From Candidatus Sulfotelmatobacter sp. (GTDB lineage Bacteria; Verrucomicrobiota; Verrucomicrobiia; Limisphaerales; UBA11358): a stretch of 64,000 bases of DNA. The DNA is taken from positions 65,383 to 129,382 of the forward strand of contig DATJTK010000170.1 in assembly GCA_035503455.1 (NCBI GenBank), in the 5' to 3' direction. A program made the translations under genes and the position numbers. The notes below the pieces were generated by a model. The model saw only the letters and a list, made by a program, of their open reading frames with translations. It did not search any database and was not told the origin of the DNA. Positions 7,127 through 41,290 of this stretch are shown here, piece by piece (within the stretch, counting starts at the first letter, position 1; every line of letters starts with the position of its first letter).

Positions 7127-8799
7127 AACTAAAACTGCCCACCATACACTTGAAGCGATACCGGGAAATCGCCGCGCTCCTTTGGAAATACGGGCGTTCG
7201 GACCTCGTCCGCCAAATGGGCGTGGACGATTTGCTGGCGCCCGAGCAAGTGGTAAAGCCCAGTGGGCCGGCCCCGGAAGAATTGGCCAATGACTTGGAAG
7301 CGATGGGGCCGACATTCATCAAAATCGGGCAATTGCTCTCAAGCCGGTCGGATTTAATCCCCGATGTGTATCTGAAACCACTCTCTCGCCTTCAGGACAG
7401 CGTCAAACCGTTTTCTTTCGAGGAAGTCGAACGCATCATTCTCGCGGAACTGGGCGTGAGGATTTCCAAAGCGTTTTCGGATTTTAATCCCCGGCCAATC
7501 GCCGCCGCGTCGCTGGGGCAGGTCCATTTCGCCGCCCTGCGTGACGGCCGGCAGGTCATCGTTAAAATCCAGCGCCCGGACATTCGCAAACAAATTGCCG
7601 AAGACTTCGAAGTGCTCACCCAAATCGCCGAGTTTTTGGACGCCTACACGGAATTTGGGCGGCGCTATCGTTTCCTGACGGTTCTCGAAGAATTCCGGGT
7701 GACGATTCAAAGGGAATTGAATTATGAGCGCGAGGCGCAAAATCTCATCACCCTCGGCTCCAATCTCAAGGATTTTCATCATATCCAGGTGCCTCAGCCG
7801 GTGGATGACTACACGACGCGCTCGGTCCTGACGATGGATTTTGTGCAGGGCCGAAAAATCACGTCGCTTTCGCCCCTGGCGCGGCTGGACCTCAACGGCA
7901 GTCCGCTGGCGGAGGAATTATTCAGGGCCTATTTGAAACAAATTATGGTGGACGGCATGTTCCACGCTGATCCGCATCCGGGAAACGTGTTTCTGACGGA
8001 TGATGGCCATATCGCCCTGATTGACCTTGGCATGGTCGGGCACGTTGCGCCCACGCTCCAGGAAAACCTGCTCAAGCTCCTTATCGCCGTGAGCGAAGGG
8101 GACAATGAGCAGGCCAGCGACATCATCCTCGGCATCAGCCGCACCAACGAAGATTTCAACGAAGTGCAATTCGGCCGCCGCATGTGCCAAATTATCAACG
8201 CGGCCCAAAACCAGAGCCTGGAACAACTCAACGTCGGCAAATCGCTCCTGGACATGAGCAAGACGGCCATTGACAACGGCCTATTTGTGCCCAGCGAGCT
8301 GACGCTGCTCGGCAAGACACTGCTGCAACTGGACGAGATTGGAAAAATCATTTATCCCAAATTTGATCCCTACGCTGCGGTACGGCGCAATATTCCGTCG
8401 CTGCTGGCGCAACGTCTCAGGAAGCACGCCAGCCAGGGGACAGTCATCAACTCGCTGCTCGAGTTCAAAAATATGTTCACACACCTGCCGTCGCGGATTA
8501 ATCGCATCCTGGATGCGACGGCAAATTCCGACCTCGAAGTGAGAATCAAGACCGTGGACACGCAAATGCTTGTGGAAGGTTTTCAAAAAGTGGCTAACCG
8601 AATTACGGCCGGCGTCATCCTGGCTTCCCTGATCCTGGGCGCGTCACTGCTGATGCGGGTCCAGACCCGGTTCACGATATTCGGCTATCCCGGCCTGGCC
8701 ATTGTGTGTTTTTTGGGGGCCGCAGCCGGGGGGTTGTGGCTGCTATTCACTATTTTCTTTCAGGACGAGAGGATCAAGAAACGGAAGAAGATGATGTGA
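7123..8799 (+). CDS. ABC1/UbiB-family atypical protein kinase
   Basis: ASLGQVHFAALRDGRQVIVKIQRPD, HADPHPGNVF and IALIDLGMVG kinase-like motifs. Two C-terminal TM helices. The start overlaps the GH15 stop (ATGA). Confidence 0.9.
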   Translation: MKLKLPTIHLKRYREIAALLWKYGRSDLVRQMGVDDLLAPEQVVKPSGPAPEELANDLEAMGPTFIKIGQLLSSRSDLIPDVYLKPLSRLQDSVKPFSFEEVERIILAELGVRISKAFSDFNPRPIAAASLGQVHFAALRDGRQVIVKIQRPDIRKQIAEDFEVLTQIAEFLDAYTEFGRRYRFLTVLEEFRVTIQRELNYEREAQNLITLGSNLKDFHHIQVPQPVDDYTTRSVLTMDFVQGRKITSLSPLARLDLNGSPLAEELFRAYLKQIMVDGMFHADPHPGNVFLTDDGHIALIDLGMVGHVAPTLQENLLKLLIAVSEGDNEQASDIILGISRTNEDFNEVQFGRRMCQIINAAQNQSLEQLNVGKSLLDMSKTAIDNGLFVPSELTLLGKTLLQLDEIGKIIYPKFDPYAAVRRNIPSLLAQRLRKHASQGTVINSLLEFKNMFTHLPSRINRILDATANSDLEVRIKTVDTQMLVEGFQKVANRITAGVILASLILGASLLMRVQTRFTIFGYPGLAIVCFLGAAAGGLWLLFTIFFQDERIKKRKKMM

Positions 8800-9531: not shown

Positions 9532-9560
9532 GCGGATCGGGAAACCGGTCCGCTTTTTTT
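9532..9560 (+). terminator. Rho-independent terminator of the lipoprotein gene
   Basis: GCGGATCGG-gaaa-CCGGTCCGC stem-loop (one G:U pair) followed by T7. Confidence 0.7.
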
Positions 9561-9563
9561 GTT

Positions 9564-9780
9564 GTAGCGCAGGTTTCCAAACCTGCCGTATCGCGGGTTT
9601 CTAAACCCGCTGGCCGTGCGACGTTGTTGGGCGCCGGGGCCTGGAAAAGCCGCAATTTGTCACTCGTCGTGCGGCAGGTCGCGCCAATTCAGCGAGTACC
9701 GCGAATTAGCCGGGGCGCGACTTCGTAAGATCAGCGGGTTTAGAAACCCGCGATACAGCAGACTTAGAAGTCTGCGCTAC
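9564..9780. repeat. 217-bp MITE-like element with ~49-bp terminal inverted repeats
   Basis: Left arm 9564-9612 is GTAGCGCAGGTTTCCAAACCTGCCGTATCGCGGGTTTCTAAACCCGCTG. The reverse complement of the right arm 9732-9780 is GTAGCGCAGACTTCTAAGTCTGCTGTATCGCGGGTTTCTAAACCCGCTG. Each arm itself contains two short hairpins. Confidence 0.7.
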
Positions 9781-9782
9781 GG

Positions 9783-10766
9783 CTACCAATACTGGTGAAC
9801 GAGCGGCTTGATATCCGCTTCATAAAGGGCGCGGATTTTTTTCATGATGTCAGGTGACAGCGGCGGGAGTTTTGAGGCGGCCGCATTTTCAGCAACCTGT
9901 TCCGGACGCTTTGCGCCGGGGATTGCGCACGTGACGGCCGGGAAATCCAGAATCCACCGCAACGCCAGTTGGGTCAGGGTGGCATCATCGGGAACCAGTT
10001 TCTTGAGTTCTTCAGTGGCGCCCAGGCCCACTTTGAAGTCCACGCCGCTGAAGGTTTCGCCGCGGTCGAATGCCTCGCCCCGGCGGTTGAACGAGCGATG
10101 GTCATCCTTCGCAAATTTGGTTTCGCGCGTGATTTTGCCGGTCAACATTCCGGACGCCAGCGGCACGCGCGCCAGGATGCCTGCCTTGTGTTTGCGGGCG
10201 AGTTCGAAAAGCAGGTCCGCGGGGCGCTGTCGGAAAATGTTGAAAATGATTTGCACCGATTGAACGTTTCGAAATTCGATGGCCTTGATGGCTTCTTCGA
10301 CTTTTTCCACGCTGACGCCGTAATGCCGGAGTTTGCCGGCCTTGACGAGGTCGTCCAAAATCTCAAAAACCTCGGGCATGTAATAGACCTGGGTGGGCGG
10401 GCAATGGAGTTGGAGCAGGTCCAGGGTTTCGGCTTCGAGGTTGCGCAAACTGCGCTCGATGAACGTCGTCAGGTTTTCGCGGCTGTAGCCTTCGGCGGTT
10501 TGTTCACGCAGACGCCGGCCGGCTTTGGTGGCGATAAAGAATTGTTCCTTTCTTTCCTTTTTCAACTTGGCCAGCAAACGTTCGCTCCGGCCATCCCCAT
10601 AAACGTCGGCGGTGTCAAAAAAATTCACACCCGCGTCGAGGGCCGCATGAAGGGCGGCAAGCGAGTCCTTGTCCTCCACAGAGCCCCAGGCGCCGCCGAT
10701 TGCCCAGGCGCCGAAACTGATTTCAGAAATTTTCCAGCCGGTGCGGCCAAGTTCCCGGTAATTCAT
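9783..10766 (-). CDS. Aldo/keto reductase
   Basis: MNYRELGRTGWKISEISFGAWAIGG..FFDTADVYGDGRSE is the AKR N-terminus. ATG 10766 preferred. The 60-codon ORF-track extension to 10946 runs through REP DNA. Confidence 0.9.
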   Translation of the reverse strand: MNYRELGRTGWKISEISFGAWAIGGAWGSVEDKDSLAALHAALDAGVNFFDTADVYGDGRSERLLAKLKKERKEQFFIATKAGRRLREQTAEGYSRENLTTFIERSLRNLEAETLDLLQLHCPPTQVYYMPEVFEILDDLVKAGKLRHYGVSVEKVEEAIKAIEFRNVQSVQIIFNIFRQRPADLLFELARKHKAGILARVPLASGMLTGKITRETKFAKDDHRSFNRRGEAFDRGETFSGVDFKVGLGATEELKKLVPDDATLTQLALRWILDFPAVTCAIPGAKRPEQVAENAAASKLPPLSPDIMKKIRALYEADIKPLVHQYW

Positions 10767-11047: not shown

Positions 11048-12904
11048 ATGTGCGGCATCATCGGATACATCGGGAAAAAACCGGCGTCGCCCATCCTTCT
11101 GGAAGGATTGCGGCGGCTGGAATACCGCGGATACGACAGCGCCGGCGTGGCCGTGCTTCAGGAAGCCGAGCTTCTCGTTCGCAAAAAGAAGGGCAAAATC
11201 GAAACCGGGCTGGCAACGTTCCTCGAAGCAAACCCGGTTTCGGGAAGCCTCGGCATCGGCCACACGCGCTGGGCGACCCACGGCGTGCCATCCGACAGAA
11301 ATTGTCACCCGCACGTGGACGCATCCGGACACATTGCCGTGGTGCATAACGGCGTCATCGAAAATTATGAGGCGCTCAGAACGCGGCTGATGCGCGAGGG
11401 ACATCAATTCAAATCCGATACCGATACCGAAGTCCTGGCGCATTTGATCGGGGATTATTATGCAAAAGGAAAAAAACGCGGCGCGCGGAACAATGTTCTG
11501 GCTGATGCGGTTTGCCGGGCATTGCGGGAGGTGATTGGGACCTACGGAATCGCTGTGGTTTGTGCCGATGAACCGGACAAGATCATCGCCGCGCGGCGCG
11601 GTTCGCCGCTCATCATCGGCATTGGCAGAGGCGAACATTTTCTGGCCAGCGACACCAACGCCATCGTAGCGCATACAAAGAAGGTCGTTTACCTCAACGA
11701 TTATGACGTGGCTGCGGTGACGGCGGACGGCTTCGAAGTTTCAAATCTCGGCGCGGACACGGCCAAAACGCAAATAACTCGCCTTGAGTTCAGCCACGAG
11801 GACGCCGCCCGGGGTGAGCACCCGCATTTTATGCTCAAGGAAATCTTTGAGCAGCCGCGCACGATTGAGAATGCGTTGCGCGGACGGATGGATTTTAAGG
11901 GCGCCACGGCGAAATTTGGCGGCTTGAACCTGAGCGACGACGAATTGCGCTCGATAGGCCGCATCGTCATTGCCGCCAGTGGCACAAGCTGGCACGCGGC
12001 GCTGGCCGGCGAATATCTCATCGAGGAATTTGCGGACATTCCCGTGGAAGTGGAATTCGCGCACGAATTTTGCTATCGCAATGCGCCGCTGGAGGCGAAT
12101 ACGGTGTTGCTCGCGCTGTCGCAATCGGGCGAAACGGCGGACACGCTGGCGGCATTGCGCGAGGCGAAACGGCGCGGACGCAAAGCGCTGGCCATCGTGA
12201 ATGTGGTCGGCAGCGCGATTGCGCGCGAAGTGGACGGCGGCATCTACATGCACGCCGGGCCGGAAATCGCCGTGGCTTCGACGAAAGCGTTTGTTTCCAC
12301 ACTCGTCGTTTTGGCGTTGCTCGCCGTTTACCTGGGCCGCATGCGAGGCCTGCCGGCGACTACCGCGATGCAAATTCTTCGCGCGCTGGAATCATTGCCC
12401 GGACAGGTGGAACATATCCTCGCCCAAACGGCGGCGTTGAAAAAACTCGCGCGCAAATACGCCAAAGCCGGCGATTTCTTTTTTCTGGGACGCGGGCGCA
12501 TGTTTCCCATCGCGCTCGAAGGCGCATTGAAGTTGAAGGAAATTTCCTATGTACACGCGGAAGGCTATTCCGCCGCCGAAATGAAGCATGGACCGATTGC
12601 GCTGATCGACCGAAAAACGCCAACCGTTTTTCTCGCGCCCCGGGACGCGATGTATGAAAAGACTATTGCAAACCTGGCAATGATTCGCGCGCGCAAAGGC
12701 CCGGTCATCGCGGTGGCAACTGAAGGCGACAAGCAAATCAGGAAAATGGCGGATGACGTGATTTATTTGCCGCAAACGGCAGAACAGCTTTACCCGGTGC
12801 TGGCCGTCGTGCCGCTGCAATTGCTGGCGTATTACATCGCCATGGAACGCGGGTGCGATGTGGATAAGCCGCGGAATTTGGCAAAGAGCGTTACAGTGGA
12901 GTGA
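11048..12904 (+). CDS. glmS: Glutamine--fructose-6-phosphate aminotransferase
   Basis: MCGIIGYIG N-terminal nucleophile Cys, two SIS domains, C-terminal ...DKPRNLAKSVTVE. Confidence 0.98.
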   Translation: MCGIIGYIGKKPASPILLEGLRRLEYRGYDSAGVAVLQEAELLVRKKKGKIETGLATFLEANPVSGSLGIGHTRWATHGVPSDRNCHPHVDASGHIAVVHNGVIENYEALRTRLMREGHQFKSDTDTEVLAHLIGDYYAKGKKRGARNNVLADAVCRALREVIGTYGIAVVCADEPDKIIAARRGSPLIIGIGRGEHFLASDTNAIVAHTKKVVYLNDYDVAAVTADGFEVSNLGADTAKTQITRLEFSHEDAARGEHPHFMLKEIFEQPRTIENALRGRMDFKGATAKFGGLNLSDDELRSIGRIVIAASGTSWHAALAGEYLIEEFADIPVEVEFAHEFCYRNAPLEANTVLLALSQSGETADTLAALREAKRRGRKALAIVNVVGSAIAREVDGGIYMHAGPEIAVASTKAFVSTLVVLALLAVYLGRMRGLPATTAMQILRALESLPGQVEHILAQTAALKKLARKYAKAGDFFFLGRGRMFPIALEGALKLKEISYVHAEGYSAAEMKHGPIALIDRKTPTVFLAPRDAMYEKTIANLAMIRARKGPVIAVATEGDKQIRKMADDVIYLPQTAEQLYPVLAVVPLQLLAYYIAMERGCDVDKPRNLAKSVTVE

Positions 12905-12905
12905 T

Positions 12906-13286
12906 TTAAAATCCAAAATCGGTCTGCTCTGGTGGCGAGGCCGTGACTTTTAACGGTAATGAATCGGGTGGGTGTGGCTTGCCTTGTTCGTCATAACGGA
13001 TGAATTGCAACGACGCCATTACTTGGAGAGCCTCGCTGTCAGAATAGCCAGCTCGGTCCAAAACTGACGGTGATGAAATGCCGAGAAGATCAATTAGCTC
13101 TTCATGCGAAGATCCCTCTTGATCTCCACGCTCGAAGTATCGACAACAAGCTTTGAGTTGTTCAAACAAGTCGCCGTGGCAGGATTTTAAATCTGCCACC
13201 GCTTCACGACAGACCCGCTCAATGCGCTCGGCATAATCTGGCGGGAAATCATCGTCTGTGGGACTCATTTCAACACAAAAGGTCAC
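12906..13286 (-). CDS. Hypothetical small acidic protein (126 aa)
   Basis: ORF only. Translationally coupled (ATGA overlap 13283-13286) to the upstream 126-aa ORF. No motif recognised. More AT-rich than flanking genes by eye. Confidence 0.55.
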   Translation of the reverse strand: MTFCVEMSPTDDDFPPDYAERIERVCREAVADLKSCHGDLFEQLKACCRYFERGDQEGSSHEELIDLLGISSPSVLDRAGYSDSEALQVMASLQFIRYDEQGKPHPPDSLPLKVTASPPEQTDFGF

Positions 13287-13663
13287 GGTATAACCGATAA
13301 CCTGACCCGCTTCCCTTTGGATTCACAGTCGCCCGCGACTCGAATCGCCTCGTCAAGATCATGCAGGACGTCGGATCTGCGAGCCTTCCCCCCAAAAGTA
13401 AATGGCATCCCGCTGTTCGCCACTACATCACGAACCTTTGTCAGTGATGCAAGCAACCCTGACGCATTCGAAAAGGTCGGTTCCATCTCTTCGTCAAATT
13501 CGGACGCTGACACCGAATAATCGTGAAATGTTGTTAGCCTTGGAACCCCAACCTCATCGCAAATCTTGTCAAGCTCCTCGCTGAATCGGTAAAGCGCCCA
13601 CAAGTCTGAATTGGATTTGCCTCCCTCCAGACCTTCCTCAATTATCCAAAGTACGTTGCCCAT
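13283..13663 (-). CDS. Hypothetical small acidic protein (126 aa)
   Basis: ORF only. First gene of a two-gene minus-strand unit divergent from the MerR gene. No motif recognised. Confidence 0.6.
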   Translation of the reverse strand: MGNVLWIIEEGLEGGKSNSDLWALYRFSEELDKICDEVGVPRLTTFHDYSVSASEFDEEMEPTFSNASGLLASLTKVRDVVANSGMPFTFGGKARRSDVLHDLDEAIRVAGDCESKGKRVRLSVIP

Positions 13664-13731
13664 ACGCTAAAGATTATTTCGTAAGGTTGCGCTTGGTCAA
13701 GCGCGGTTGCGGTCCAGCGGCGCAAATGGGC

Positions 13732-13969
13732 GCATCTCAGTCCTTATGCACAGAATACATCGCCCCTAATGGGGCTGGGATTTTAATGATCATTTTAACT
13801 ACAAATACACCAGCCCTACGGGCTTTAAGCAGACGCCAAAGTAGCGAATCGGTCATTGCTGCTAAGCCCGTAGGGCTGGCGTATTTGTAGAGAACCGACC
13901 GAAAAAAAATTTACAAGCCCCGTTAGGGGCGGCGTATTCTGGCAAATACGTTCACAAAAACTGAGATGC
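13732..13969. repeat. 238-bp nested foldback (MITE-like) element
   Basis: Outer inverted repeat: GCATCTCAG (13732) / CTGAGATGC (13961). Middle: CAGAATACATCGCCCCTAATGGGG / CCCCGTTAGGGGCGGCGTATTCTG. Inner: CTACAAATACACCAGCCCTACGGGCTTTAAGC (13799-13830) / GCTAAGCCCGTAGGGCTGGCGTATTTGTAG (13861-13890). Confidence 0.7.
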
Positions 13970-14026
13970 AATTCCCGTGTGCATTTAAGAGAACCGTTCC
14001 CTGAGGCAAAGAATTAATATTCACAG

Positions 14027-14055
14027 TTGACAGTAACACTGTTAAGTGTTAGCAT
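14027..14055 (+). promoter_or_regulatory. Sigma70-type promoter with a MerR-style operator palindrome in the spacer; near-leaderless
   Basis: TTGACA (14027-14032), a 17-nt spacer, then TAGCAT (14050-14055). The perfect palindrome TAACACT-gtta-AGTGTTA (14034-14051) fills the spacer. Only 6 nt separate the -10 from ATG 14062. Confidence 0.6.
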
Positions 14056-14061
14056 GCCTCC

Positions 14062-14580
14062 ATGAACAGTGAGTTTTCCCTGGAAGAATTGGCAGTAGAG
14101 GTTCAGGCCTGGACCGAAAAACACCAGGTATTTCCCGCCAACGGCCAGGCTGCCGAGGAGATCACGGAACGAACCATCCGCTACTACCGAACCCTCGGCT
14201 TGCTGGACGCCCCCATCGGCAATTACGCAAAAACGTTTTCCAAAAAGCATAAATTGCAGCTCATTGCCATTCGGTTCTACCAGTCTCTCGGACTGCCGTT
14301 ACGCAAGATTCGTGATGAACTGTATGGGAAGAGCGAGCAAGATCTTGCTGCGCTGGAGCGGCAGATTGTGAAGCAGGGAGGAAAAGCAGCCGCGCTCGCC
14401 ATGCCGCTGGTCCCGCCGGTTGCCAGCGAATCGTGGTCGGCTATTCCTCTGGCCGGAAATTATCTGCTCATTTCACGAGACAACCAAAAACTGCCGCGAA
14501 CCATCGTGGACAAAATTAACCAACTGCTATTGTCTGTCGCGCCAGCGACGGACGACGCGGCAGCATCAGGAAGGAATTGA
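14062..14580 (+). CDS. MerR-family transcriptional regulator
   Basis: N-terminal winged HTH (FSLEELAVEV...ITERTIRYYRTLGLLDAP..HKLQLIAIRFYQSLGLPLRKIRDEL) with an insert in the HTH. Uncharacterised C-terminal ~70 aa. The stop lies 3 nt before the next gene. Confidence 0.8.
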   Translation: MNSEFSLEELAVEVQAWTEKHQVFPANGQAAEEITERTIRYYRTLGLLDAPIGNYAKTFSKKHKLQLIAIRFYQSLGLPLRKIRDELYGKSEQDLAALERQIVKQGGKAAALAMPLVPPVASESWSAIPLAGNYLLISRDNQKLPRTIVDKINQLLLSVAPATDDAAASGRN

Positions 14581-14583
14581 ATT

Positions 14584-16968
14584 ATGAATACGTCACGCAT
14601 ATTGCCGGTAACTCCGAAGCATTTCGGATTGTTTGCAATCATCGAATCCAAACGAGTTGTGCTCCCGCTTAAGGGGGTGGAGTGCGAATTTTTCGTCCAG
14701 GGTGGGGTCGTCGAAGTTTCAATGAGCCAGGTGTTTCGGCAGGAAAATCCGAATCCGCTCGATTGCCAGTACCAGTTTCCGTTGCCGGCGGATGCGTCGG
14801 TTTATTTCTGTGAGGCGGACATCAATGGACGACTTATTACGGCGCAGGTCAAGGAACGTGATGAAGCCCGGAAGATTGCCGACGAAAAAAAGGCTGAGGG
14901 GTTCCGCACCGCGCTCGTGGAATCAGAGAGGGACAATTTCTTCAGTCTGGAATTGGGCAACGTACAGCCTGATGACCTAATCATCGTGCGGTTGAAATAT
15001 TTCCAAACGTTGCGCGCGATTGCCGAAACCAAATCCATCGAAATCCCATTTTGTCCGGGCATTCGCTACATTCCTGGAAAGCCTCTGCTTCGCAGCAACT
15101 CCGGCAAAGGCGTGGTGGACGACACGAATGAAGTTCCCGACGCATCGCGCATCAGCCCGGTGAGAATCGATGCCGGTCACCCGGACGCTGCCTATGTGGA
15201 TGTTCGCGGGCACATGGACGCGGAGTTTCTGAATATGGCCAGTCTGGTTTCACCCAGCCACATCATTGATGTTTGCTCGCGAGAGGGTCAGGCGCAGGTC
15301 ACTCTCTCAAGCAAGGGCGAAGTGCCGGATCGTGATTTTGTCTTGAGATGGGAAGATCGTAATGCGGAATCGGTTGCGCCGCGCGCCTGGCTGCGGCAAA
15401 AAGGGAACGAAAATTATGCATTGATGGAAGTTCGCGCGCCGCGTCAAAATTCGGCCACGGAAACGGCGCTGGACTTCTATTTTCTCGTGGACCGATCGGG
15501 GAGCATGAGTGGTTTGAAATGGGAAAAGGCCGTGGAAGCTTTGCAAAGCTGCGTTGGTGTGCTCGGTCCCAATGACCGGGTCATGGTCACGATATTTGAA
15601 TCGAATTTCTGTGATTTCGCCGAACGGCCATTGCCGGTAAAAAAGATGCTTGCGGATCAGCAGTTCCAAAATTTAAAAGAGTTGCGGGCTGGCGGGGGAA
15701 CAGAGATGGCTCCTGCCCTGAAACACGTTCTTGACGTTGCTGCCAGGAACTCCGCGGGTCGTGACAAAAACCTTATTCTGATAACGGACGCGCAAATCGG
15801 AAATGAGTCCACGATCCTGGACCTGATGCGCGCAGCGCCGGACATGCCGGTCCATTGTTTTGGAATAGACATCGCTCTAAACGATGCGCTCCTGTTGGCC
15901 CTTGCCCGCCAGCAGGGTGGCGCCTTCCATTCGCTGAATCCGAACGACGATATTGCCAGCCTCGTGACTAAGCTCGGGAATACGCTGAGACAACCCGAAC
16001 TCCTGGACCTGCATTTGTCCGAGGGATGGGAAGTTGCGGATGCCAGAATTGCCAATCTATATTCCGGTCAGGTGGTTTACCTCAGCGCCAGGGCTGCGGG
16101 GGCGCTGCCCCTGGAATTAACTGCGCGGACGCCATCGGGCGAAGCCGTTTCATTTAAATTCAAAACGCAGACGCTGCCGCATGACGCGCCCTTTTTGCAT
16201 TGGCACAAAACTCGAATCCAGCGTTTGCTGGCTGAAAATCAAAACGCCGAGGCAATTCAACTGTCGGTCGCCGGCAATTTATTGTGTCGCCTGACTTCGT
16301 TTGTTGCCTGGGATGAATCGGAGAAAGTTGCCGTGTCGCAGCATGATTTGGTACAACCGGCTCTGCTGTATGCGCCTCCGGCAGGAGCAGGCGGGCTTTT
16401 TGCTGAAAGAACTCGGTCTCGTGGGGTTCCTGACGATATTCGTTTCTGCATGGAGAAATTGAGCACGGACGCCAAAGAATCCATTTGTGACTTTGAGTTG
16501 GGATCCCGTCCCCTTCGAAAAGATGCTTCCGTACGAACTCAGTGGGGCCAATTCGTCGCGGTTTGCTTGAGACTGTCAGGAGACGACTGGAACACTCCAT
16601 TTCAAGCCATTTTTCTATGGCACGAAAACGCCTCGCCGGCAGAAATCAAAGGAATTGAGATAACGCTGCTGAAATTAACCCGGCAACTCAAGCTATGCGC
16701 GGATTTGATCCAAATACTCGACACCAGCGGGGGTGGCTTAATTCATCAGCTTCGCCAGTGGCGGCTTCAATTCCGAATCATGTTGCAACGTCAGAGGTCA
16801 AATGGTGAGTGGCAGGATTTCGAATCGATCTGCCGGGCAGTCGGAAGCGTTGACTCATCAACGCCACCGGAGCGGCTGGCTGAATTGAAATCTGAAGTCC
16901 AGAAGAAGGCCGTGGAATTGCTCAAACAATTCGCCGGGAGCTTGCCGCTTGCAAGGGCCTCAACGTGA
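14584..16968 (+). CDS. Cytoplasmic VIT-domain + von Willebrand A (vWA) protein with unassigned ~300-aa C-terminal region
   Basis: VIT-like N-terminus (LPLKGVECEFFVQGGVVEVSMSQVF...YQFPLPADASVYFCEADINGRLITAQVKERDEARKIADEKKAEG). vWA MIDAS motif DFYFLVDRSGSMSG...GGGTEMAPAL...LITDAQ. No signal peptide or TM segment. Confidence 0.85.
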   Translation: MNTSRILPVTPKHFGLFAIIESKRVVLPLKGVECEFFVQGGVVEVSMSQVFRQENPNPLDCQYQFPLPADASVYFCEADINGRLITAQVKERDEARKIADEKKAEGFRTALVESERDNFFSLELGNVQPDDLIIVRLKYFQTLRAIAETKSIEIPFCPGIRYIPGKPLLRSNSGKGVVDDTNEVPDASRISPVRIDAGHPDAAYVDVRGHMDAEFLNMASLVSPSHIIDVCSREGQAQVTLSSKGEVPDRDFVLRWEDRNAESVAPRAWLRQKGNENYALMEVRAPRQNSATETALDFYFLVDRSGSMSGLKWEKAVEALQSCVGVLGPNDRVMVTIFESNFCDFAERPLPVKKMLADQQFQNLKELRAGGGTEMAPALKHVLDVAARNSAGRDKNLILITDAQIGNESTILDLMRAAPDMPVHCFGIDIALNDALLLALARQQGGAFHSLNPNDDIASLVTKLGNTLRQPELLDLHLSEGWEVADARIANLYSGQVVYLSARAAGALPLELTARTPSGEAVSFKFKTQTLPHDAPFLHWHKTRIQRLLAENQNAEAIQLSVAGNLLCRLTSFVAWDESEKVAVSQHDLVQPALLYAPPAGAGGLFAERTRSRGVPDDIRFCMEKLSTDAKESICDFELGSRPLRKDASVRTQWGQFVAVCLRLSGDDWNTPFQAIFLWHENASPAEIKGIEITLLKLTRQLKLCADLIQILDTSGGGLIHQLRQWRLQFRIMLQRQRSNGEWQDFESICRAVGSVDSSTPPERLAELKSEVQKKAVELLKQFAGSLPLARAST

Positions 16969-16981
16969 CAGCGCGCGCCCC

Positions 16982-17032
16982 CGCGACGTCAACGATCCGC
17001 GGAATCTGGCTAAGAGCGTGACGGTCGAATAA
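16982..17032 (+). pseudogene. Orphan fragment encoding the last ~17 codons of a glmS gene
   Basis: Translates in frame to RDVNDPRNLAKSVTVE*. The resident glmS ends CDVDKPRNLAKSVTVE* at 12854-12904. 37/51 nt are identical by hand alignment, with differences mostly at synonymous positions. Confidence 0.7.
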
Positions 17033-17240
17033 ACTGAAGCAGCATTAGCGCAGTCGCCAGGGATAAGACCTTAAGCTTTGCGGCATAATTCGGAGTGTCC
17101 GCCAGCGACCGCCCTTCGTAGCATACGCGCCATGTACCAGCACGGCGCGGTTTTTTCACCGCACGCGGAGCGCCGTGGCTGCGGCTGCGATGGTCGGCGT
17201 ACTGGGAAAAATCGTTTAAAAAAAGCTTGCGTAGTGCACG

Positions 17241-17268
17241 TATATGCAGCTATATGCAAGTATATGCA
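17241..17268 (+). promoter_or_regulatory. Three perfect TATATGCA direct repeats at exactly 10-bp spacing overlapping the methyltransferase start
   Basis: TATATGCA at 17241, 17251 and 17261. Possible -35 TTGCGT (17227-17232) and -10 TATATG (17251-17256). ATG 17264 lies inside the third repeat. Confidence 0.5.
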
Positions 17269-18688
17269 TTCGGCGCCCGCTAAAACTTTATTCTCATCTG
17301 CGCAAGTTGCCGAACGCGCCGGTATCCATAAGGATACGCTGCTGCGATGGCTACGCCAGGGCGTTGTACAGGAACCAAAGCGCGATAGGCATGGTTGGCG
17401 GATATTCACGCCGGAAGAAGCGGCCCGAATCGAGGCAATTGCGAAATCCGAACAACCACCGTCTGACTCACCGTTCGAGCTTCGCGACGCTCCGGGGCCA
17501 CCTGCTGCCATGGAGAGGCTGGGGAGAATCGACTGGGATTTTCGAGAGGCCAAAACAAGCTATCTGACGCATGGCCTGCATCCCTACCCGGCCAAATTCA
17601 TACCCCAAATTCCTAACGCCTTGATCCAAGAATTGTCCGACGTTGGAAGCACGGTAGGTGACATTTTCTGCGGCAGCGGCACAACACTTGTCGAAGGGAT
17701 GCTTCTGAAGCGTAATGTGGTGGGCGTTGACGCTAACCCATTGGCGTGCCTAATCTCCGCAGCGAAGACCGCCCGTCTGCAGGACGGTGACAAGGATTTG
17801 CTTATGCAGCTGGCGCAACGTTCCGGCCACCTTGCCGACGAATTTGCCACCGATGTCACCCAAACACTCTTTCCTGTTGCGAAATTTGTCTCAAAGGCTC
17901 CCCGCCCTGCCGGAAAGGCTATCGATTTCTGGTTTGAACCATTTATAACAGAAGAATTGGCCGAAATACTTTCCTGGTGTCGAAAATTGCCAACTGAATC
18001 AGCTCGGAATATAGCCCTCGCCTCGTTTTCAGCGATCGTCGTAAATGTTTCCCGTCAAGACTCAGACACTCGGTACGTCCGCCGCGCAAAGAAGCTTTGC
18101 CCTGGCGATGCGTTCCGGCGATTCGCACAGGTTTTGTCTGAAAATGCAAACGCATCCGAAAGATTTACAGACATTTTGGAGCCAAACATTTCGTGCAAAA
18201 TATTCCACGCGGACCTGCTTTCTTCGCCTGAAATTCCAATGCTCGACTTGGTTGTGTGCTCGCCGCCATACCCAAATGCATTCAGTTACCACCTATACCA
18301 CATGACTCGAATGGTGTGGCTCGGCATGAATCAGCCGGAGTTCAAAAAAAGGGAGATTGGCAGCCACCGGAAGTTCAGCAGCAAGGGAAGGAATGGCGCG
18401 ACCATCGAGACATTTCAGAACGAAATGGTTTCAATCTTTGGCTGGCTAAAAAAAATGATTCGCCAGGGTGGCCATGCTTGCTTTGTGGTCGGTAATTCAA
18501 TCATTAGAGGCCAGGCATACGACAATGCAATGGTCCTGACGAACGCGGCAAGCGTGAACGGTTTTACCCAGATTGCGGCGCTTACGCGGAATCTCAAAGA
18601 CACAGCCAAGGCGTTTAATCCAAAGATTGGCAAAATAAAAACGGAAAAAGTTCTTATTTACCAAAATTCAAGCACAAGCTACCTATGA
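17264..18688 (+). CDS. DNA methyltransferase M1 (alpha-class, SPPY motif IV; N4-C or N6-A) with N-terminal MerR/Xis-type HTH
   Basis: HTH: LFSSAQVAERAGIHKDTLLRWLRQGVV..GWRIFTPEE. Motif X/I: HPYPAKFIPQ...GDIFCGSGTTLVEG. Motif IV: DLVVCSPPYPNAF, about 200 aa later. ATG 17264 preferred over TTG 17078. Confidence 0.85.
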   Translation: MHSAPAKTLFSSAQVAERAGIHKDTLLRWLRQGVVQEPKRDRHGWRIFTPEEAARIEAIAKSEQPPSDSPFELRDAPGPPAAMERLGRIDWDFREAKTSYLTHGLHPYPAKFIPQIPNALIQELSDVGSTVGDIFCGSGTTLVEGMLLKRNVVGVDANPLACLISAAKTARLQDGDKDLLMQLAQRSGHLADEFATDVTQTLFPVAKFVSKAPRPAGKAIDFWFEPFITEELAEILSWCRKLPTESARNIALASFSAIVVNVSRQDSDTRYVRRAKKLCPGDAFRRFAQVLSENANASERFTDILEPNISCKIFHADLLSSPEIPMLDLVVCSPPYPNAFSYHLYHMTRMVWLGMNQPEFKKREIGSHRKFSSKGRNGATIETFQNEMVSIFGWLKKMIRQGGHACFVVGNSIIRGQAYDNAMVLTNAASVNGFTQIAALTRNLKDTAKAFNPKIGKIKTEKVLIYQNSSTSYL

Positions 18689-20289
18689 ACAAACTAATCA
18701 CATGCAGGATGAAACCATATATCCAGCCGTTCGAACGAACGTTGGCACTTCAAGAATTAGAAGTTTTGGCCCGCGCCACGCCACAACCGACGATGGCCAT
18801 TGATGAGGAACCTGAATGTTTTCAAGTCAGATCAAATAAACCAGGGCAGGCTCTCGCGCGGGAACTAGCCTTTTGGGAAGCGGTTTGTGATGGCAGGACG
18901 ATTCACACAACTCAATCTTTGCGCGAATCTACTGTCAACGTCGTAAGGAATGGCATTCCGCTTGATGACCTCATGGCCCAGCTGCCATTCAAAAATGAAA
19001 TATCGTTGCCCAATCGCCGCTGTCTTCGGTACGGGACGCACGGCCTTCATGAATATCGCGGAAAATTTTTCCCGCAGCTGGTCCGTTCTTTCATAAACAT
19101 CGCAAAAATCCCAATCGGCGGCTTAGTCGCCGACCCATTTTGCGGCAGTGGCACAACCGGAGTGGAAGCGATCTTAGCCAATCGCCGAACCATTGGCATG
19201 GATTTGAATCCGCTTTCTGTGTTTATGGCAAGAACCAAGTGTCAACTACTCGGTGTCAAATACAGTGACATGGAAGAAGCCTATCTGCAGGTTCGAACTC
19301 AACTATTGGCGCCGCGCAATAAGACCCGAGGCGACTATTGGGTCTCAAAATTGTCACAGGTTGATCAAGATTATCTAAAAATCTGGTTCGACGCTGCAAT
19401 CTTGGATGAACTAGACTTGATCGCAACTTGTATCAGCGAAAGAACAAAGGGGGCAATACACGATTTTATGCTCCTTTGCTTGAGCAATGTCTTACGGCAA
19501 GTGTCGTGGCAGAAAGTGGACGACCTAAGAGTTAGACGAGAGTTGAAAGCAGTGGACGAAATTGACCCGATTAAAGAGTTTCTGGAAGAGCTCGGCCGTT
19601 CCGTCCGCCTTGTGCTTGCATTTTTGCGCCAAGAGGGCCGGGTCGCCTCTGTCAATGCCGAGATATCCGAAGGCGACAGCAGACAAATTTCAAAGCGGTG
19701 GGAAAAGTGGGCGGGAAAGATCGACGCTGCTATTACATCCCCACCTTATGCAACCGCTTTACCTTATTTGGACACAGACCGGTTAAGCCTCTGCTTCCTC
19801 GGGCTGTTGCCACGCGATAAACATCGCGCGCTTGACCACGAGATGATCGGCAATCGTGAAATTGCCGATGCGGTCAGAAAACGTTACTGGCAAGAATTTT
19901 CAGCAAAAAACCACGACTTGCCGTCTTCGGTTTGTGATTTAATCTCAAAAATTCAGCGGCTTAATTTGAAAGCAAACGTTGGCTTTCGACGGCGCAATTT
20001 ACCCTCTCTCCTTTTTAAATATTTCTACGACATGAAAAAGGTGTTTGCTGAGTTGGACGCAGTGCTTAAACCGGGGGCAAGTGCATTTTTTGTGGTTGGG
20101 AACAATCACACTATCGCTGGCGGCCAGCGGGTCGACATTGAAACGGTCGAGCTGCTTCAAGATGTGGCTAAAAGCGTGGGATTGGAAATTGTTGAGACAA
20201 TCGCAATGGACATGTTGATTTCAAGAGACATTTTTCGGAAAAATGCGATCGACTCTGAAAGTATCCTTCATTTTCGGAGACGCAGTTAA
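18685..20289 (+). CDS. DNA methyltransferase M2 (alpha-class, SPPY motif IV)
   Basis: Motif I: VADPFCGSGTTGVEAIL..IGMDLNPL. Motif IV: DAAITSPPYATALPY. ATGA overlap with M1. Confidence 0.85.
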   Translation: MNKLITCRMKPYIQPFERTLALQELEVLARATPQPTMAIDEEPECFQVRSNKPGQALARELAFWEAVCDGRTIHTTQSLRESTVNVVRNGIPLDDLMAQLPFKNEISLPNRRCLRYGTHGLHEYRGKFFPQLVRSFINIAKIPIGGLVADPFCGSGTTGVEAILANRRTIGMDLNPLSVFMARTKCQLLGVKYSDMEEAYLQVRTQLLAPRNKTRGDYWVSKLSQVDQDYLKIWFDAAILDELDLIATCISERTKGAIHDFMLLCLSNVLRQVSWQKVDDLRVRRELKAVDEIDPIKEFLEELGRSVRLVLAFLRQEGRVASVNAEISEGDSRQISKRWEKWAGKIDAAITSPPYATALPYLDTDRLSLCFLGLLPRDKHRALDHEMIGNREIADAVRKRYWQEFSAKNHDLPSSVCDLISKIQRLNLKANVGFRRRNLPSLLFKYFYDMKKVFAELDAVLKPGASAFFVVGNNHTIAGGQRVDIETVELLQDVAKSVGLEIVETIAMDMLISRDIFRKNAIDSESILHFRRRS

Positions 20290-21497
20290 TAGTAGCCCCA
20301 TTGCTTTTTTGAGTTCCGCACGCGGTTTGTGCACAAAGCCTGATAACGCGCGAAGTCTGTACTGCCGGCCGGGACAATCTCCACATAGTAATCATAACCG
20401 GCCTTGCCGTCTGCGAGTTCGATCCTCAAAATATCGCCGACCGCGCCTGCGTCGCGCAACGCCGCACTACGTAGCCGGAAATCACTCTTGTCCGGCCAGG
20501 TCATCATGTTAACCGGTGCAATTTGTCCGCCCAACCGGATCTGGACTGCATGCCGGTCCCATTTTCCTGGCTTGCCAGGGTCTTGCGTGAAAAGTTTCCG
20601 CCAGCCCCAAAATGCCGGATTCGCGTCGCGGGCGGCCAACGGGATAAATATTTCTGGCGAACGCTTGGAAGCTCCTAAAGTCACTTGGCCGGTGCCCGCA
20701 TCAGTCTGTTGTAAAGTCATAACAAACCCACATAATCCTTTTCCTTCTGGCTGGAGTATCTTAAGTGCCAGCTTTTCCTCGATGGGTTCGGCTCGGGCAG
20801 CTGGTTTGACGCGCGTAGCTCCGAAAAGCTTCTTGACTCCCCTTTTTATTGCCGATGTCTGCTGGATGACCTTCACAGCTTCGTTCGTTCGCTGAATTTC
20901 TGCTTCGGTCGGGACATAACCGTTTTCGTGCAACTCCTTAATCAATTCCGTCGTTAACGGCTTTACCGTCTCGTGTTTCGGATTTGTCCATTCATCCAAA
21001 AGCGCTTCTAGGGCAAGAAAGAATTTTTCGTCGTCCGGATTTTTCCTGTCCAGTTGGACGTGAACGAAAGCTTCGTAATTTGTGAACAGTCCACCCTCGG
21101 TGAGATTCCCGGAACCAACAAAGCATTCTGCTGCATTTTCATTCGAAAAAAGGAATATCTTCGGATGAAAAGTCGGCCTTTGGGCGGTTTCGTTGTGCAA
21201 AACCCAAACCCCTCCACTCGACCCAACCGCCACCAATAAATCTGCCAAACCTTCCGCACTGGTCACGCCATGATCAATTCCGACCGAAATCTTGGTTGTC
21301 CCGTGTGTGATGAATGACCCTAACGGCTTGGCCAGATGCTTCACGCCTGAGCGTTTAACGAACGCCACCGCAGCGCGAAATACCTTCCAACTTGGTTTTT
21401 TCAGATTTTCGGCAAGAAAATCGCCAAGCCTTTGCTCACCCTCAGGATGATGAATCAGCTGAATCATTTTGAGGGACCGCGATTCAATGTGCGCCAT
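20286..21497 (-). CDS. PLD-superfamily restriction endonuclease with C-terminal B3-like DNA-binding domain (BfiI/NgoFVII-like)
   Basis: Single HKD-type motif TFHPKIFLFSNENAAECFVGSGNLTEGG in the N-terminal half. The C-terminal half (..SDFRLRSAALRDAGAVGDILRIEL..) resembles the B3/EcoRII-N-like recognition fold of BfiI. Convergent with M2, with stop codons sharing TTAA (20286-20289). Confidence 0.75.
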   Translation of the reverse strand: MAHIESRSLKMIQLIHHPEGEQRLGDFLAENLKKPSWKVFRAAVAFVKRSGVKHLAKPLGSFITHGTTKISVGIDHGVTSAEGLADLLVAVGSSGGVWVLHNETAQRPTFHPKIFLFSNENAAECFVGSGNLTEGGLFTNYEAFVHVQLDRKNPDDEKFFLALEALLDEWTNPKHETVKPLTTELIKELHENGYVPTEAEIQRTNEAVKVIQQTSAIKRGVKKLFGATRVKPAARAEPIEEKLALKILQPEGKGLCGFVMTLQQTDAGTGQVTLGASKRSPEIFIPLAARDANPAFWGWRKLFTQDPGKPGKWDRHAVQIRLGGQIAPVNMMTWPDKSDFRLRSAALRDAGAVGDILRIELADGKAGYDYYVEIVPAGSTDFARYQALCTNRVRNSKKQWGYY

Positions 21498-21860
21498 GAC
21501 AGGATTCGCAAGTTACGTAATTTTCGCCGAACGTACAACTATTGATTTATTCAAGCCCATGTCCAGGATTTCAATAGGTCATAAAAGGGGCAGAGATTAA
21601 GCGGGAAAAAGTGGGAAATCCGAATGTTGTGCCCACAGCTAAAGCGGCGTAAAAACTGTTTCAGTGAAATTGAAGCAGGCAATTGCAAAATTTCTTCTGA
21701 CGTATTGTAGTATTTGTGTCAGCGAGCGGTCAAAAACCAGCCAAGGTGTTACGGATTTTTTTGGCGTCAAAGTTTTGGCCGTGGGCAAAGAGGCGGCTGC
21801 GAGCGCGAGGAACAATGCGACATTCCACGATAACGATAATGTAGCTTTTGTTGCTTTTCC

Positions 21861-21920
21861 TGTTGCCGAAATGTTGCCGACTAAATCATTGACAATCAAC
21901 AATGTTGCCGATGTTGCCGA
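21861..21920. repeat. Four copies of TGTTGCCGA in two adjacent pairs
   Basis: TGTTGCCGA at 21861, 21872, 21903 and 21912, read directly. Confidence 0.8.
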
Positions 21921-22110
21921 TTTCCAGAGCATCATCAAACCATAACCACTAGAGGGTCGCCTCGCCATGGTCGCCACGAAGTGTCCTTCAATCTCCACTT
22001 CGCGGCCTTCGCGTCCTTTGCGTGAGAATTATTCATTTCCGAAAATCACGGGTGCGGTTTCTGTACGCTGTTCCATCTTCCATCCTGCCTAAGCCCGCGA
22101 ATCCCCCTTC

Positions 22111-22310
22111 CGAAATTAAATCACCCCTTAATTTCGCCTTCATCAGATTGAGCTTTTTTCCCGAAAAACCGCTCGTCGTAAATTAAGCAGAATCTTCAAA
22201 TTTCCAAACAAAACCGCATCATTTTACCCCCTTAACATTGAAATTAAGCATTTCGTTTACCCAAATTAAGCCCGCAAAACCATAGCATACCCATTTTTAC
22301 TTAATTTGGG
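22111..22310. repeat. Cluster of AAATTAAG(C) motifs and inverted repeats built from them
   Basis: CGAAATTAA-N8-TTAATTTCG (22111-22136). AAATTAAGC at 22180, 22241 and 22263. CCCAAATTAAG (22260-22270) pairs with CTTAATTTGGG (22300-22310). Confidence 0.7.
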
Positions 22311-22999
22311 CCAGGGGGAGGGGGAATCGTTCTCGCTTGCCGCGCCGTAGTCAGACGAAGGCGGGTCCTCGCCTGCCCACCGTAGCTTATGAACCCATTT
22401 GGCGAGATGCAGATATTGATTTGATATCCGAAAATGATTTTTCACACGGGCTCTTTAGCAAAGGCGGGTCCTCGTCCTCGAAAATTACGGTTCGGCATGT
22501 TCGAGGTTCAATGTTCGATGTTGTTCAGATGTCTAAAAAAACTTCCGCGTATTTAGTGCTTCCAAAAAACGAAATAAAAAAATTTCTGTTCCTAAATCCC
22601 CCCGCCAACATTGAACCTTTTTGGGGTTCCAAATGTAGTTCTTGTACTGCGCCCTGCATCTGAGAAATTCGAATTGTATCAAAGTCATGAACGAACCAGG
22701 AACGAGTGAAACTTCCCATGTAGGGCAGGCATCCTGCCTGCCGGTTAACACGGCTTCCAGCCGCGTGTTCCCAACAATCCAAAAATCCACTTATCCATTT
22801 ATCCAACCACCCGAATTGTCCCCACGTTCCGCCTTGATGGGGGGACAATTAGCCCTGACCCTCTCAAGAACCCTGATTTTCCGCACATCTTTTACGCCGA
22901 TGGCGTTTGCCGGGCCGTCTTTTTCAGTGATTCGAAGCGCTTTTGGCGAAAAAACCGTGTTTAAAACCCGTTTTTTTGATCATCGGAAGGGACAATTCC

Positions 23000-23527
23000 C
23001 TATTGAACCACGCTCAACTGCCCGGTGCCGGCCACCATCCGAAAGAGCATCACCAGCAGCGGAAACACCGCCGCCGAGCAAATGTTTCCAAGCAGTGACG
23101 CCAGCAAACTGCGAGACAGAGACGGCGCCGCCAGCGGCGATTTGCGAGATGAAATAAAACGACAAATGAGGTAAATCAGCGATCCTTCGAGCAACACGAT
23201 CAAACCTTCGCCCGCCACGGCCATCACCGTTGGTTGCATTCCGTAGGTGAGCCAAAGCCAGCCCAAAAAAATAGGATACGTCAGCAGGTGCATGCCCATC
23301 AGCCAAAGAATAAACAGGCGCGGACGCCGCCACCGCCGAAGTATCAAACTGATGCAAACCGCTTCCAACAAAATGGCTAGAACCACGGCAGTGATAACAA
23401 AAGGAGATGGACCGGGTTCCACGACCGATACCGGAATGGGATCGGCCTTCACGCAGGCCGTTGAAAACAACAACGCCGCCACCCATCCGGTATGGCGCAC
23501 ACCATTGTTGCGAATGGCGCCGGTCAT
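23000..23527 (-). CDS. Hypothetical integral membrane protein
   Basis: 175 aa with 4-5 hydrophobic helices. Divergent from the HEAT-repeat gene. No motif recognised. Confidence 0.6.
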   Translation of the reverse strand: MTGAIRNNGVRHTGWVAALLFSTACVKADPIPVSVVEPGPSPFVITAVVLAILLEAVCISLILRRWRRPRLFILWLMGMHLLTYPIFLGWLWLTYGMQPTVMAVAGEGLIVLLEGSLIYLICRFISSRKSPLAAPSLSRSLLASLLGNICSAAVFPLLVMLFRMVAGTGQLSVVQ

Positions 23528-23641
23528 GGTAAAAACCCTGATTCTTTGCCGCTCGCATGTAAAGCGAAAATTCTAAAAAAACTTGCCAATCCCTTGCAAA
23601 GAGAGCAAAAGTTGGAACCACAACAATCGCGAACGCCGCCC

Positions 23642-27043: not shown

Positions 27044-27056
27044 TCACGTGAGCAAC

Positions 27057-27719
27057 TCAACGATCAAATGGCGGCCTGCGAAGAAATTTTCGGATGGAGA
27101 TGAAAACACGCGGAAGCATCGTATAGATTTCTACAGTCAATTTATCACCATCAAGCGCGTCGAACGGACGACCAAAGAACCTTTTACAAATGTTGAACGC
27201 CAACGCTTCGCCATGCGTCACGAGGTCCTTATTGCCGGATTTGTTGAGCACCTCCGATTCCTCCTCCAAAAGTGTGCCTTCGTTTAGAACCACGCCGCGC
27301 TCGGCGTCGCCAAAGGCTTTGCGCCGCAAGACTGACTTTTCGTACAACGCGTATGCGAAATAATTTGTGCTGCTCTCCAGATCAAACGCAAATACATCCC
27401 CCGAGGGAAACAACGACACAAAGCGCTGAATCAATTCGTTGTTTTCGTGTTCGACCGTCCCGATGAGATCGGGGAGCCCGGCAATAATAGCCGCCCCTGG
27501 CTTGGTTGGATCTTCCCCATAGGCGCCGATGCAAAAACTTCGCCTTCGATCAATTGCGTCGAGTCCGCTTTCGAGAAAGACATACGAAGTACTCCAAGTC
27601 ACCAGGATTCGCATCTTGTCGAGGATCGCTCTGCCCGCTGTCTCGTCATGCTTCATCTCCGTGCCGAGATAGCCGGGCTGGCGCTCATTGGCAATGATGC
27701 AACAGATCTTCCATCCCAT
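27057..27719 (-). CDS. Hypothetical protein (220 aa)
   Basis: ORF with coding-like composition. No motif recognised. Confidence 0.6.
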   Translation of the reverse strand: MGWKICCIIANERQPGYLGTEMKHDETAGRAILDKMRILVTWSTSYVFLESGLDAIDRRRSFCIGAYGEDPTKPGAAIIAGLPDLIGTVEHENNELIQRFVSLFPSGDVFAFDLESSTNYFAYALYEKSVLRRKAFGDAERGVVLNEGTLLEEESEVLNKSGNKDLVTHGEALAFNICKRFFGRPFDALDGDKLTVEIYTMLPRVFISIRKFLRRPPFDR

Positions 27720-27851
27720 ACGTAATCCTAGTGATTCATGGCGTTTTGCCAGGGTATGCTCGCCCGAATCGTAACCTATTGAACCGTGCGGATCAATTCG
27801 TTATATCCTGGAAACGGGTGGAACGCCAGATGCTATCCATCCTGATTACTT

Positions 27852-30278: not shown

Positions 30279-30377
30279 AGGAAATAGACCAGACGAACGG
30301 CCTGGGCTCACGGTCTCTGCCCATTGAATTGTCGAAATTCGACTGACAAACGCAGGCAAGACCCTGTCCTCCAGGAA

Positions 30378-40943: not shown

Positions 40944-41290
40944 ATTTTATGACTGCTGGTTATTTACGATCCAGGTTGCGTAACCTATCGCCGAATTTCC
41001 TTTATAGAATAGAAAATGATCAATCTTGTAAATTTTATGACAACCGCTGGTTCGTTAACCGCAGCTATTGTCCGACCTAATTTGTATTGAAACCATTTCC
41101 AATTCATATAGGTATGGTCACGGCGTCGTTTTTTGCGCAATTCATCGTGATTCGTGGAGCCAGGATCCCTGAATTGAAAATCGTAAATTGAAATGAATTA
41201 TACCGTTATTTTTATTAAGGCAAAAGCGATTTTGTTGTATTTACGCTCGCTTTTTGAAAACGCTTGTGTAATAATGACCAGAACAGTAAA

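Follow-up and report, generated by a model that had tools for sequence, protein, structure and literature searches.

An orphan glmS 3' end linked to a MerR/VIT-vWA module in a hypervariable verrucomicrobial locus

Cis-mobilizable elements (CIMEs) are integrase-less remnants, flanked by attachment (att) sites, which an integrative element arriving from outside can mobilize by accretion. The transposon Tn7 inserts beyond the glmS stop codon, at a set distance from it, and does not duplicate the end of the gene. Both bear comparison with a locus in a 64,000-nucleotide stretch of DNA from Candidatus Sulfotelmatobacter sp. (hereafter the window), in which an intact glmS gene is followed, 4128 nt downstream and on the same strand, by an orphan 51-nt copy of a glmS 3' end. 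A third system is the integrase island of the Islander type, recognized by a regenerated target gene together with the displaced fragment of the original, a signature that has been used for tRNA genes (PMC4383910). For Tn7, the TnsD protein binds where the glmS coding region ends, and the insertion site is described as "just downstream of glmS" (PMC2918618); degenerate Tn7 relics without tns genes are common in A. baumannii (PMC11014353). The explanation favoured here, which has a somewhat better than even chance of being right, is that the orphan is a fossil attachment-site copy derived from recombinase-mediated integration at a glmS terminus, that this copy is linked to a MerR/VIT-vWA gene pair, and that the hot spot in which it lies has since been rebuilt.

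The two glmS ends and the substitution pattern of the orphan

The intact glmS gene, delimited by its open reading frame (ORF) and Pfam families, occupies positions 11048-12904 of the window (+ strand) and ends in CDVDKPRNLAKSVTVE and a stop codon; its last 51 nt (12854-12904, +) are the working 3' end, here called A. The orphan end, B (16982-17032, +), starts about 13-14 nt past the stop codon of the VIT-vWA gene (16968) and translates in frame to RDVNDPRNLAKSVTVE and a stop, with 11 consecutive residues and the stop identical to A and in register. A first-pass annotation of this DNA had claimed that such a diverged terminus exists, and it does: A and B agree without gaps at 37/51 positions and have two common cores, CCGCGGAAT and AAGAGCGT; tblastn of the glmS C-terminus against all six frames of the window recovers B at E=5.7e-5 and otherwise returns noise; and exactly two glmS-end copies, A and B, are present (family D1 of the repeat search). 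An intact target with a same-orientation 3' fragment within 2-200 kb is the arrangement sought by Islander-type searches, and the A/B pair has it. B is a genuine glmS terminus. That it might instead be a chance resemblance, or a piece of an unrelated gene, is a possibility so slight as to be negligible, given the E value, the register of the 11 residues and stop, and the homologous copy in a related genome (L169, below); the ORF list of the window contains no longer frame covering B, and Rfam has no match to it. Two weak points that the first-pass annotation had itself foreseen, namely a 17-codon match no better than chance and a fragment buried in a longer unrelated ORF, are thus absent.

The A-B identity equals the background between any two glmS ends, and therefore shows that B is a glmS end, not that A and B are specifically paired as repeats. 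Across 161 glmS genes drawn from many phyla, the final 51 nt are identical to A at a mean of 37.5/51 positions and to B at 36.1/51, so that the observed 37/51 is the mean for unrelated ends, and the longest identical run between A and B is the 9 nt of CCGCGGAAT. Unlike the att copies of integrase islands, A and B appear to share no block beyond generic glmS conservation. The further suggestion that one of the two ends is foreign found no support in this comparison: both lie within the generic range across lineages, a foreign end could not be picked in this way, and only comparison at the level of the clade is informative on which end deviates. The glmS gene of the window is 82-84% identical in nucleotides to those of three relatives (L175, L176 and L177), and A matches their ends at 44-46/51 positions, which corresponds to the 84th-94th percentile among 51-nt windows along glmS; no mosaic junction, and no foreign patch by which the event might have been dated, was seen in the working end in this 51-nt window comparison. 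A looks like ordinary, vertically inherited sequence, and B, which matches the L177 glmS end at 39/51 positions (a hand count from the alignment), appears to be the deviant copy of the two.

The differences between the two ends divide sharply in kind along B. Over the 36 nt that begin with CCG, a Pro codon 11 codons ahead of the stop, and run through the stop codon, all differences are silent (7/7 synonymous; P=2e-5, the chance that seven random substitutions are all silent), whereas in the five codons to the left of CCG 3/5 are nonsynonymous, at positions that include some nearly invariant in glmS. Because the changes on the right are all silent and the left part has drifted, the right part of B (CCG-CGG-AAT to stop) diverged under coding constraint, while it encoded a working glmS end, and the five left codons did not. 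This asymmetry points to a junction or crossover at or near CCGCGGAAT, and a constrained right part joined to a drifted left part is what one would expect to see in a copy of an attachment site, fitting the hybrid sites of integrase islands.

A comparable fragment occurs at an unrelated metagenome locus (L103; Ga0156418_106, 7135-7259), where a tandem orphan lies 71 nt after the glmS end and has an identical 14-nt core, exclusively synonymous differences rightward (6/6, P=1e-4) and a drifted left part. The left boundary falls about 16-18 codons before the stop in B, in the L169 orphan and in the L103 orphan alike. At L103, the gap between the working glmS end and the orphan is about 20 nt and holds nothing, housekeeping genes lie downstream, and no integrase is present among the neighbouring genes. 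The tandem orphan there resembles an att scar remaining after element loss. Such orphans are rare, L103 being the only one found at 165 other glmS loci (1/165).

The glmS-to-rplB interval in related genomes

Between A and B lie, just as the first-pass annotation described, two small ORFs, a foldback element and the MerR/VIT-vWA pair. The ORFs, both of 126 aa and on the - strand, are o1 (12906-13286), whose stop and that of glmS are 1 nt apart, and o2 (13283-13663), which overlaps o1 by 4 nt (operon o2 then o1); the foldback occupies 13732-13969, and the two-gene module, as delimited by Pfam and by colinearity with L169, spans 14015-16979 (+), with the MerR-like gene at 14062-14580 and the VIT-vWA gene at 14584-16968. 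Downstream of B there follows a predicted restriction-modification (R-M) block (17132-21497; Pfam, PADLOC). Four related genomes (L169, L175, L176 and L177), found by protein look-up and about 80-90% identical in nucleotides, each have a different arrangement. L176 keeps the left flank (GH15, UbiB, AKR and glmS), followed by 425 nt, an o2 homolog (9536-9916; 86% nt and 83% aa identity), other genes and the rplB operon, and is without o1, MerR-vWA, an orphan and R-M genes; the distance of o2 from glmS is the same as in the window. In L175, glmS is followed by a 102-aa ORF, a fatty-acid hydroxylase, a leucine-rich repeat (LRR) protein, an ABC transporter and rplB, and in L177 the left flank is as in the window, with unrelated DNA directly after glmS. 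L169 (ena:ERZ1758402 JX_forest_Scaff03385215; 80-85% nt identity), which encodes the closest VIT-vWA protein (79% aa), has the order nonribosomal peptide synthetase (NRPS), phosphopantetheinyl transferase (PPTase), orphan glmS end, 27-nt spacer, MerR, vWA, SUKH gene and o1 homolog (13398-13760; 85% nt and 79% aa identity), after which come the same genes that follow o2 in L176 and then an ABC transporter common to the window.

All five sequences diverge 1-3 nt past the glmS stop. The hexamer TGATTT at and after the stop of A is common to L177, L175 and the L169 orphan, and the distance from glmS to rplB is 18.7 kb in the window as against 5.7 kb in L176 and 7.5 kb in L175. The interval is hypervariable in this verrucomicrobial clade, a hot spot with a different arrangement in each of the relatives examined, in which o1 seems to be an older resident. 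No such variability was seen in a more distant species (P0206; 78% glmS identity), where the same housekeeping context was found in two representative places displayed from the 21 contigs covered, the others being grouped as similar.

These arrangements speak against the claim that everything between the two ends arrived as one insert. Under that proposal, 12905-16981 would be one integrase-less, CIME-like island, with A as an attL composed of a host left part and the island's surrogate right part, and B as an attR composed of the island's left part and the displaced native right part. A same-orientation gene end and fragment do bracket the interval, its junctions are tight (1 nt between the glmS and o1 stops, and about 13-14 nt between the vWA stop and B), and the left/right selection pattern of B fits an attR. 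The parts, however, go their own ways in the relatives. L176 has o2 at its usual place without MerR-vWA or the orphan; in L169, o1 lies beside the same downstream genes but past MerR-vWA, and the orphan is upstream of MerR; and in L171-L174 the MerR-vWA pair has different neighbours, once a DDE transposase, and neither an orphan nor o1/o2. The bracketed interval is therefore not one present/absent unit. Nor is it uniform in the compositional check that the first-pass annotation had proposed: its GC content at third codon positions (GC3) lies below the 0.68-0.70 of core genes, as an island's might, but differs between parts (o1 0.45, o2 0.54, MerR 0.61, vWA 0.585). The working end is without the mosaic structure of an attL, A-B identity does not exceed that of unrelated glmS ends, and no integrase is present. 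A single island is accordingly an unlikely account, and the separate recurrence of o1/o2 and of MerR-vWA, together with the uneven GC3, argues that the 4.1-kb interval from A to B is a mosaic, with MerR-vWA (14015-16979) as a discrete module.

What does travel with the orphan, on present comparisons, is this module. Positions 14015-16979 of the window are colinear with 9432-12390 of L169 (83.4% nt identity), and homology breaks off 2 nt short of B; the orphan glmS end of L169 (9352-9404, with a 2-nt frameshift) lies 27 nt upstream of the block. In its 3' part the L169 orphan is identical to B at 29/30 positions, and the two have GTC GAA in common where the native ends of A, L175, L176 and L177 have GTG GAG; in the left part the L169 orphan (CDADK) is clade-native in look, and that of B (RDVND) has drifted. 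A homologous orphan beside the same module indicates that the fragment is old, no younger than the split from the related species, and that it is linked to the MerR/VIT-vWA module and not to the whole 4.1 kb. A fragment persisting in relatives without the MerR/vWA genes was one outcome that the first-pass annotation named as refuting its reading, and it was not encountered: L175, L176 and L177 are without both. In the stretch 1-9404 of L169, an NRPS/P450/PPTase cluster ends 28 nt before the orphan, so that in that species the glmS terminus may have received a large biosynthetic island; the contig runs on for another 24 kb to the left.

Because homology with L169 stops just before B, leaving B outside the shared block, B could alternatively be the leading edge of the R-M block to its right, either as that block's own surrogate glmS end, acquired by serial accretion, or as a piece of a donor glmS co-transferred when the downstream R-M genes moved by homology-assisted or illegitimate recombination. 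The R-M genes are compositionally foreign (GC3 0.50-0.54), and from the att logic of integrase islands (PMC4383910) serial integration would assign the right half of each orphan to the element on its right. An R-M block immediately following an intact glmS that has the flank ACTGAAGCAGC would fit this proposal, but none of the fetched glmS loci has R-M genes downstream, and the homologous orphan of L169 adjoins MerR-vWA with no R-M genes nearby. An exact search of JGI metagenomes with the 36-mer of the orphan gave 0 matches, and hence no donor glmS, the closest metagenome relative being 80% identical; the R-M proteins have no relatives in IMG/VR. We regard the R-M edge as improbable, to about the same degree as the single island.

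The orphan is also not on the same side of the module in the two species, being downstream of vWA in the window and upstream of MerR in L169, within 30 nt of the module in both. Orders of this kind (orphan-MerR-vWA and MerR-vWA-orphan) could arise by tandem duplication and deletion, and an interval rebuilt in every relative offers opportunity for rearrangement, so that B might be debris of ordinary, not site-specific, events, whether a tandem duplication with deletions or a second glmS copy since lost. Neutral decay of a local duplicate is nevertheless excluded by the synonymous-only right part (P=2e-5), the left boundary is the same in the window, L169 and the unrelated L103, and ordinary debris is hard to reconcile with orphans at just 1/165 other loci. 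Debris is thus a still poorer prospect than the island or the R-M edge, and a fossil attachment-site copy remains the preferred reading of B.

Elements at glmS termini and the origin of the orphan

Support for an attachment-site origin comes from viral contigs. The principle invoked in the first-pass annotation, that elements recombine with the 3' end of a gene, bring a surrogate end and leave a scar, is illustrated at glmS itself: a scan of IMG/VR with the back-translated query PRNLAKSVTVE-stop picked out a glmS end in at least 119 viral contigs, in about 40 of them at the contig edge. By Pfam and tblastn, large serine recombinases lie beside the glmS end in L239, L215, L194, L197 and the L203/L267/L262 family, and tyrosine integrases in L293, L183 and L283; L211 carries an orphan glmS end of about 31 codons. 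The glmS sequences of three different hosts, in L203, L267 and L241, coincide fully from ACAGTGGAATAA (the last 12 nt) onward, and this convergence on identical element DNA indicates that the element supplies the last glmS codons. Recombinase-driven insertion at the glmS terminus, with the end provided by the element, has thus occurred repeatedly. Five of these contigs (L203, L267, L241, L262 and L239) hold elements of about 10 kb in different hosts with related large serine recombinases (47-67% identity), a family that contributes at most the final 12 nt of glmS. In L239 the recombinase gene, on the opposite strand, overlaps the glmS end with its own 3' end.

On the favoured reading, B would have originated when a circular element with a spare glmS end recombined with the end of glmS in a Campbell-type integration, with the crossover at or near CCGCGGAAT, leaving a copy of the terminus behind as B. 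The reaction would have been carried out by a site-specific recombinase now lost or encoded elsewhere, and B would have no present function. The interval as it stands would be a mosaic of separately acquired pieces, comprising o1-o2, the foldback, MerR-vWA and the R-M block.

Several observations weigh against this account. The link between the two orphans comes down to about two shared synonymous sites together with adjacency to the same module, and the position of the orphan on opposite sides of that module is not explained by a single simple integration; it might have come about if a module flanked by att sites lost one copy in one lineage and the other copy in the other, if an orphan copy itself served as an integration target, or by way of a circular intermediate, among other event orders. 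Neither the 64-kb window, in which Pfam was run on all interval ORFs and all large ORFs and precomputed Pfam lists were consulted, nor the L169 locus yielded a gene for a recombinase, a transposase or an excisionase-like protein. The first-pass annotation was correct that the large ORFs of the window include no integrase, transposase or tns gene (tnsA/B/C and TniQ/TnsD in the Pfam search); no tyrosine or serine recombinase lies inside the bracketed interval, as an Islander-type island would have, and tblastn of the window with the glmS-associated recombinases gave 0 matches. An empty site or a closer relative was not retrieved either: a one-genome-per-species collection yielded only relatives at 75-77% glmS identity and without synteny, JGI metagenomes none closer than 80%, and exact-protein look-ups only the window's own contig, which is listed as part of a Verrucomicrobiota MAG (ENA ERZ27256462; 66.9 kb), and identical fragments. 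Finally, candidates for a second att copy on the other side of MerR-vWA are within background in both genomes.

The candidates examined and set aside were a decayed copy left of MerR in the window, scored with and without the foldback (p ~0.3-0.46), one in the right arm of the foldback (13931-13951; 1.3% of background windows attain its score of 24), one after vWA in L169 (4.6% of the background attains its score of 22), and a glmS-end relic beside o1 of L169, GGAGCGTT compared with GGAGTGAT and anchored at the o1 stop, for which p=0.0175 was too weak.

Set against the described systems, the locus resembles integrase islands and prophages, the IMG/VR elements among them, in having an intact target, here the highly conserved glmS terminus, with a same-orientation 3' fragment downstream. 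It differs from them in that the window is without a recombinase gene, the A-B interval is not one unit, B is ancient, and the orphan of L169 adjoins the opposite flank of the linked module. As in CIMEs, an integrase-less segment lies beside att copies derived from a housekeeping gene's 3' terminus, and several modules have accreted there; unlike in CIMEs, only one flanking copy is tied to MerR-vWA, the window holds no cognate integrase, we know of no resident or incoming element with a matching one, and there is no evidence of current mobility. Tn7 likewise uses the glmS terminus as a landmark, with a downstream hot spot that gathers degraded cargo, but here tns genes and end repeats are absent, no terminal inverted repeats bracket any block, variable DNA starts 1-3 nt after the glmS stop, and a copy of the coding end exists. 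Within the literature covered by the search, no described integrase that targets the glmS coding end was found.

Neighbouring genes and implications

Homology to L176 stops at 13687 and homology to L175 resumes at 28098, and the genome-specific block relative to the relatives' shared layout (13688-28098) holds the foldback, MerR-vWA, B, the R-M genes, AT-rich DNA, a 175-aa ORF, a HEAT-repeat protein and DUF6928. For o1, of unknown function, and for o2, neither Pfam, PADLOC, NCBIfam nor PHROG gives a family match. The nested foldback (238 bp; inverted repeats I1, I2 and I10) consists of four hairpin units of about 27 nt, each with a small GC hairpin (GCCCC-TAAT-GGGGC or AGCCC-TAC-GGGCT), and is placed between an o2 promoter-like site and the MerR-vWA module; its units have no further copy in the window, none in the fetched loci and no Rfam match. 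The module has a predicted promoter-like site of its own (14027-14055, by promoter scan). Its two proteins, MerR-like of 172-200 aa and VIT-vWA of about 790 aa in the window, L169 and L171-L174, form a pair strongly conserved across Verrucomicrobiota (5595 homologs at E<=1e-10) in unrelated neighbourhoods, and searches for a defence, phage or NCBIfam assignment returned none except a below-cut-off "sortase target" match.

The R-M block comprises a type II methyltransferase fused to a MerR-type helix-turn-helix (HTH), a second type II methyltransferase and a PLD-family nuclease (- strand). The order vWA-orphan-R-M recurs in L168, an independent contig from Logan. At 17235-17268, three 10-bp repeats in tandem (TGCAnnTATA; family D4) end at an in-frame ATG (17264), which is probably the true start of the HTH-fused methyltransferase, and the repeats are a candidate operator for R-M autoregulation. 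Beyond the block lies an AT-rich stretch of about 1.5 kb (21498-22999; GC 0.46) with no convincing gene, and a Pfam search of 21.5-23 kb for an integrase pseudogene gave no matches. Two independent contigs end inside it (L168 at about 21828 and L083 at 22956), and this DNA, at the margin of the R-M block, may be rich in repeats or low in coverage; the contig ends gave no evidence of a strain variant, as L168 keeps the same gene order. Farther downstream, an ABC-transporter ATPase gene (29545-30377, - strand) is split into two overlapping ORFs (141-168 aa and 119 aa), in two independent same-species contigs (L083 and L084) as well as in the window, where relatives have one gene of 245-303 aa; it is likely a frameshift pseudogene or a case of programmed frameshift. 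A single ORF of 4226 aa (41264-53944) begins with an N-terminal subtilase (Peptidase_S8) domain.

A bolder proposal, to which we give little credence, and less than to the single island or the R-M edge, is that copies of the glmS end are portable, reusable attachment sites and that the glmS-to-rplB interval works like an integron-style accretion platform. If so, modules without integrases, such as MerR-vWA, o1-o2, SUKH, R-M and the NRPS cluster of L169, would move in and out and change their order through functions supplied in trans, using the working end or any of the orphans as the site, which would explain an orphan on opposite sides of one module. If B is instead, as we prefer, the fossil of an older integration, then the kind of event is already known, and the possibly unusual part is the occurrence of the same orphan on opposite sides of the same module. 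Should B still be usable as an attachment site, it would be a possible landing pad for engineering these uncultured bacteria, and the recombinases beside glmS ends in IMG/VR are candidates for tools that insert DNA at a site present in almost all bacteria. The locus also suggests that a gene-end fragment can outlive its element and mislead calls of island boundaries, so that a bracket formed by a target and its fragment needs comparative evidence before it is read as an island. For the organisms themselves, these comparisons single out the end of glmS as a hot spot of recombination in a little-studied clade of soil Verrucomicrobiota.

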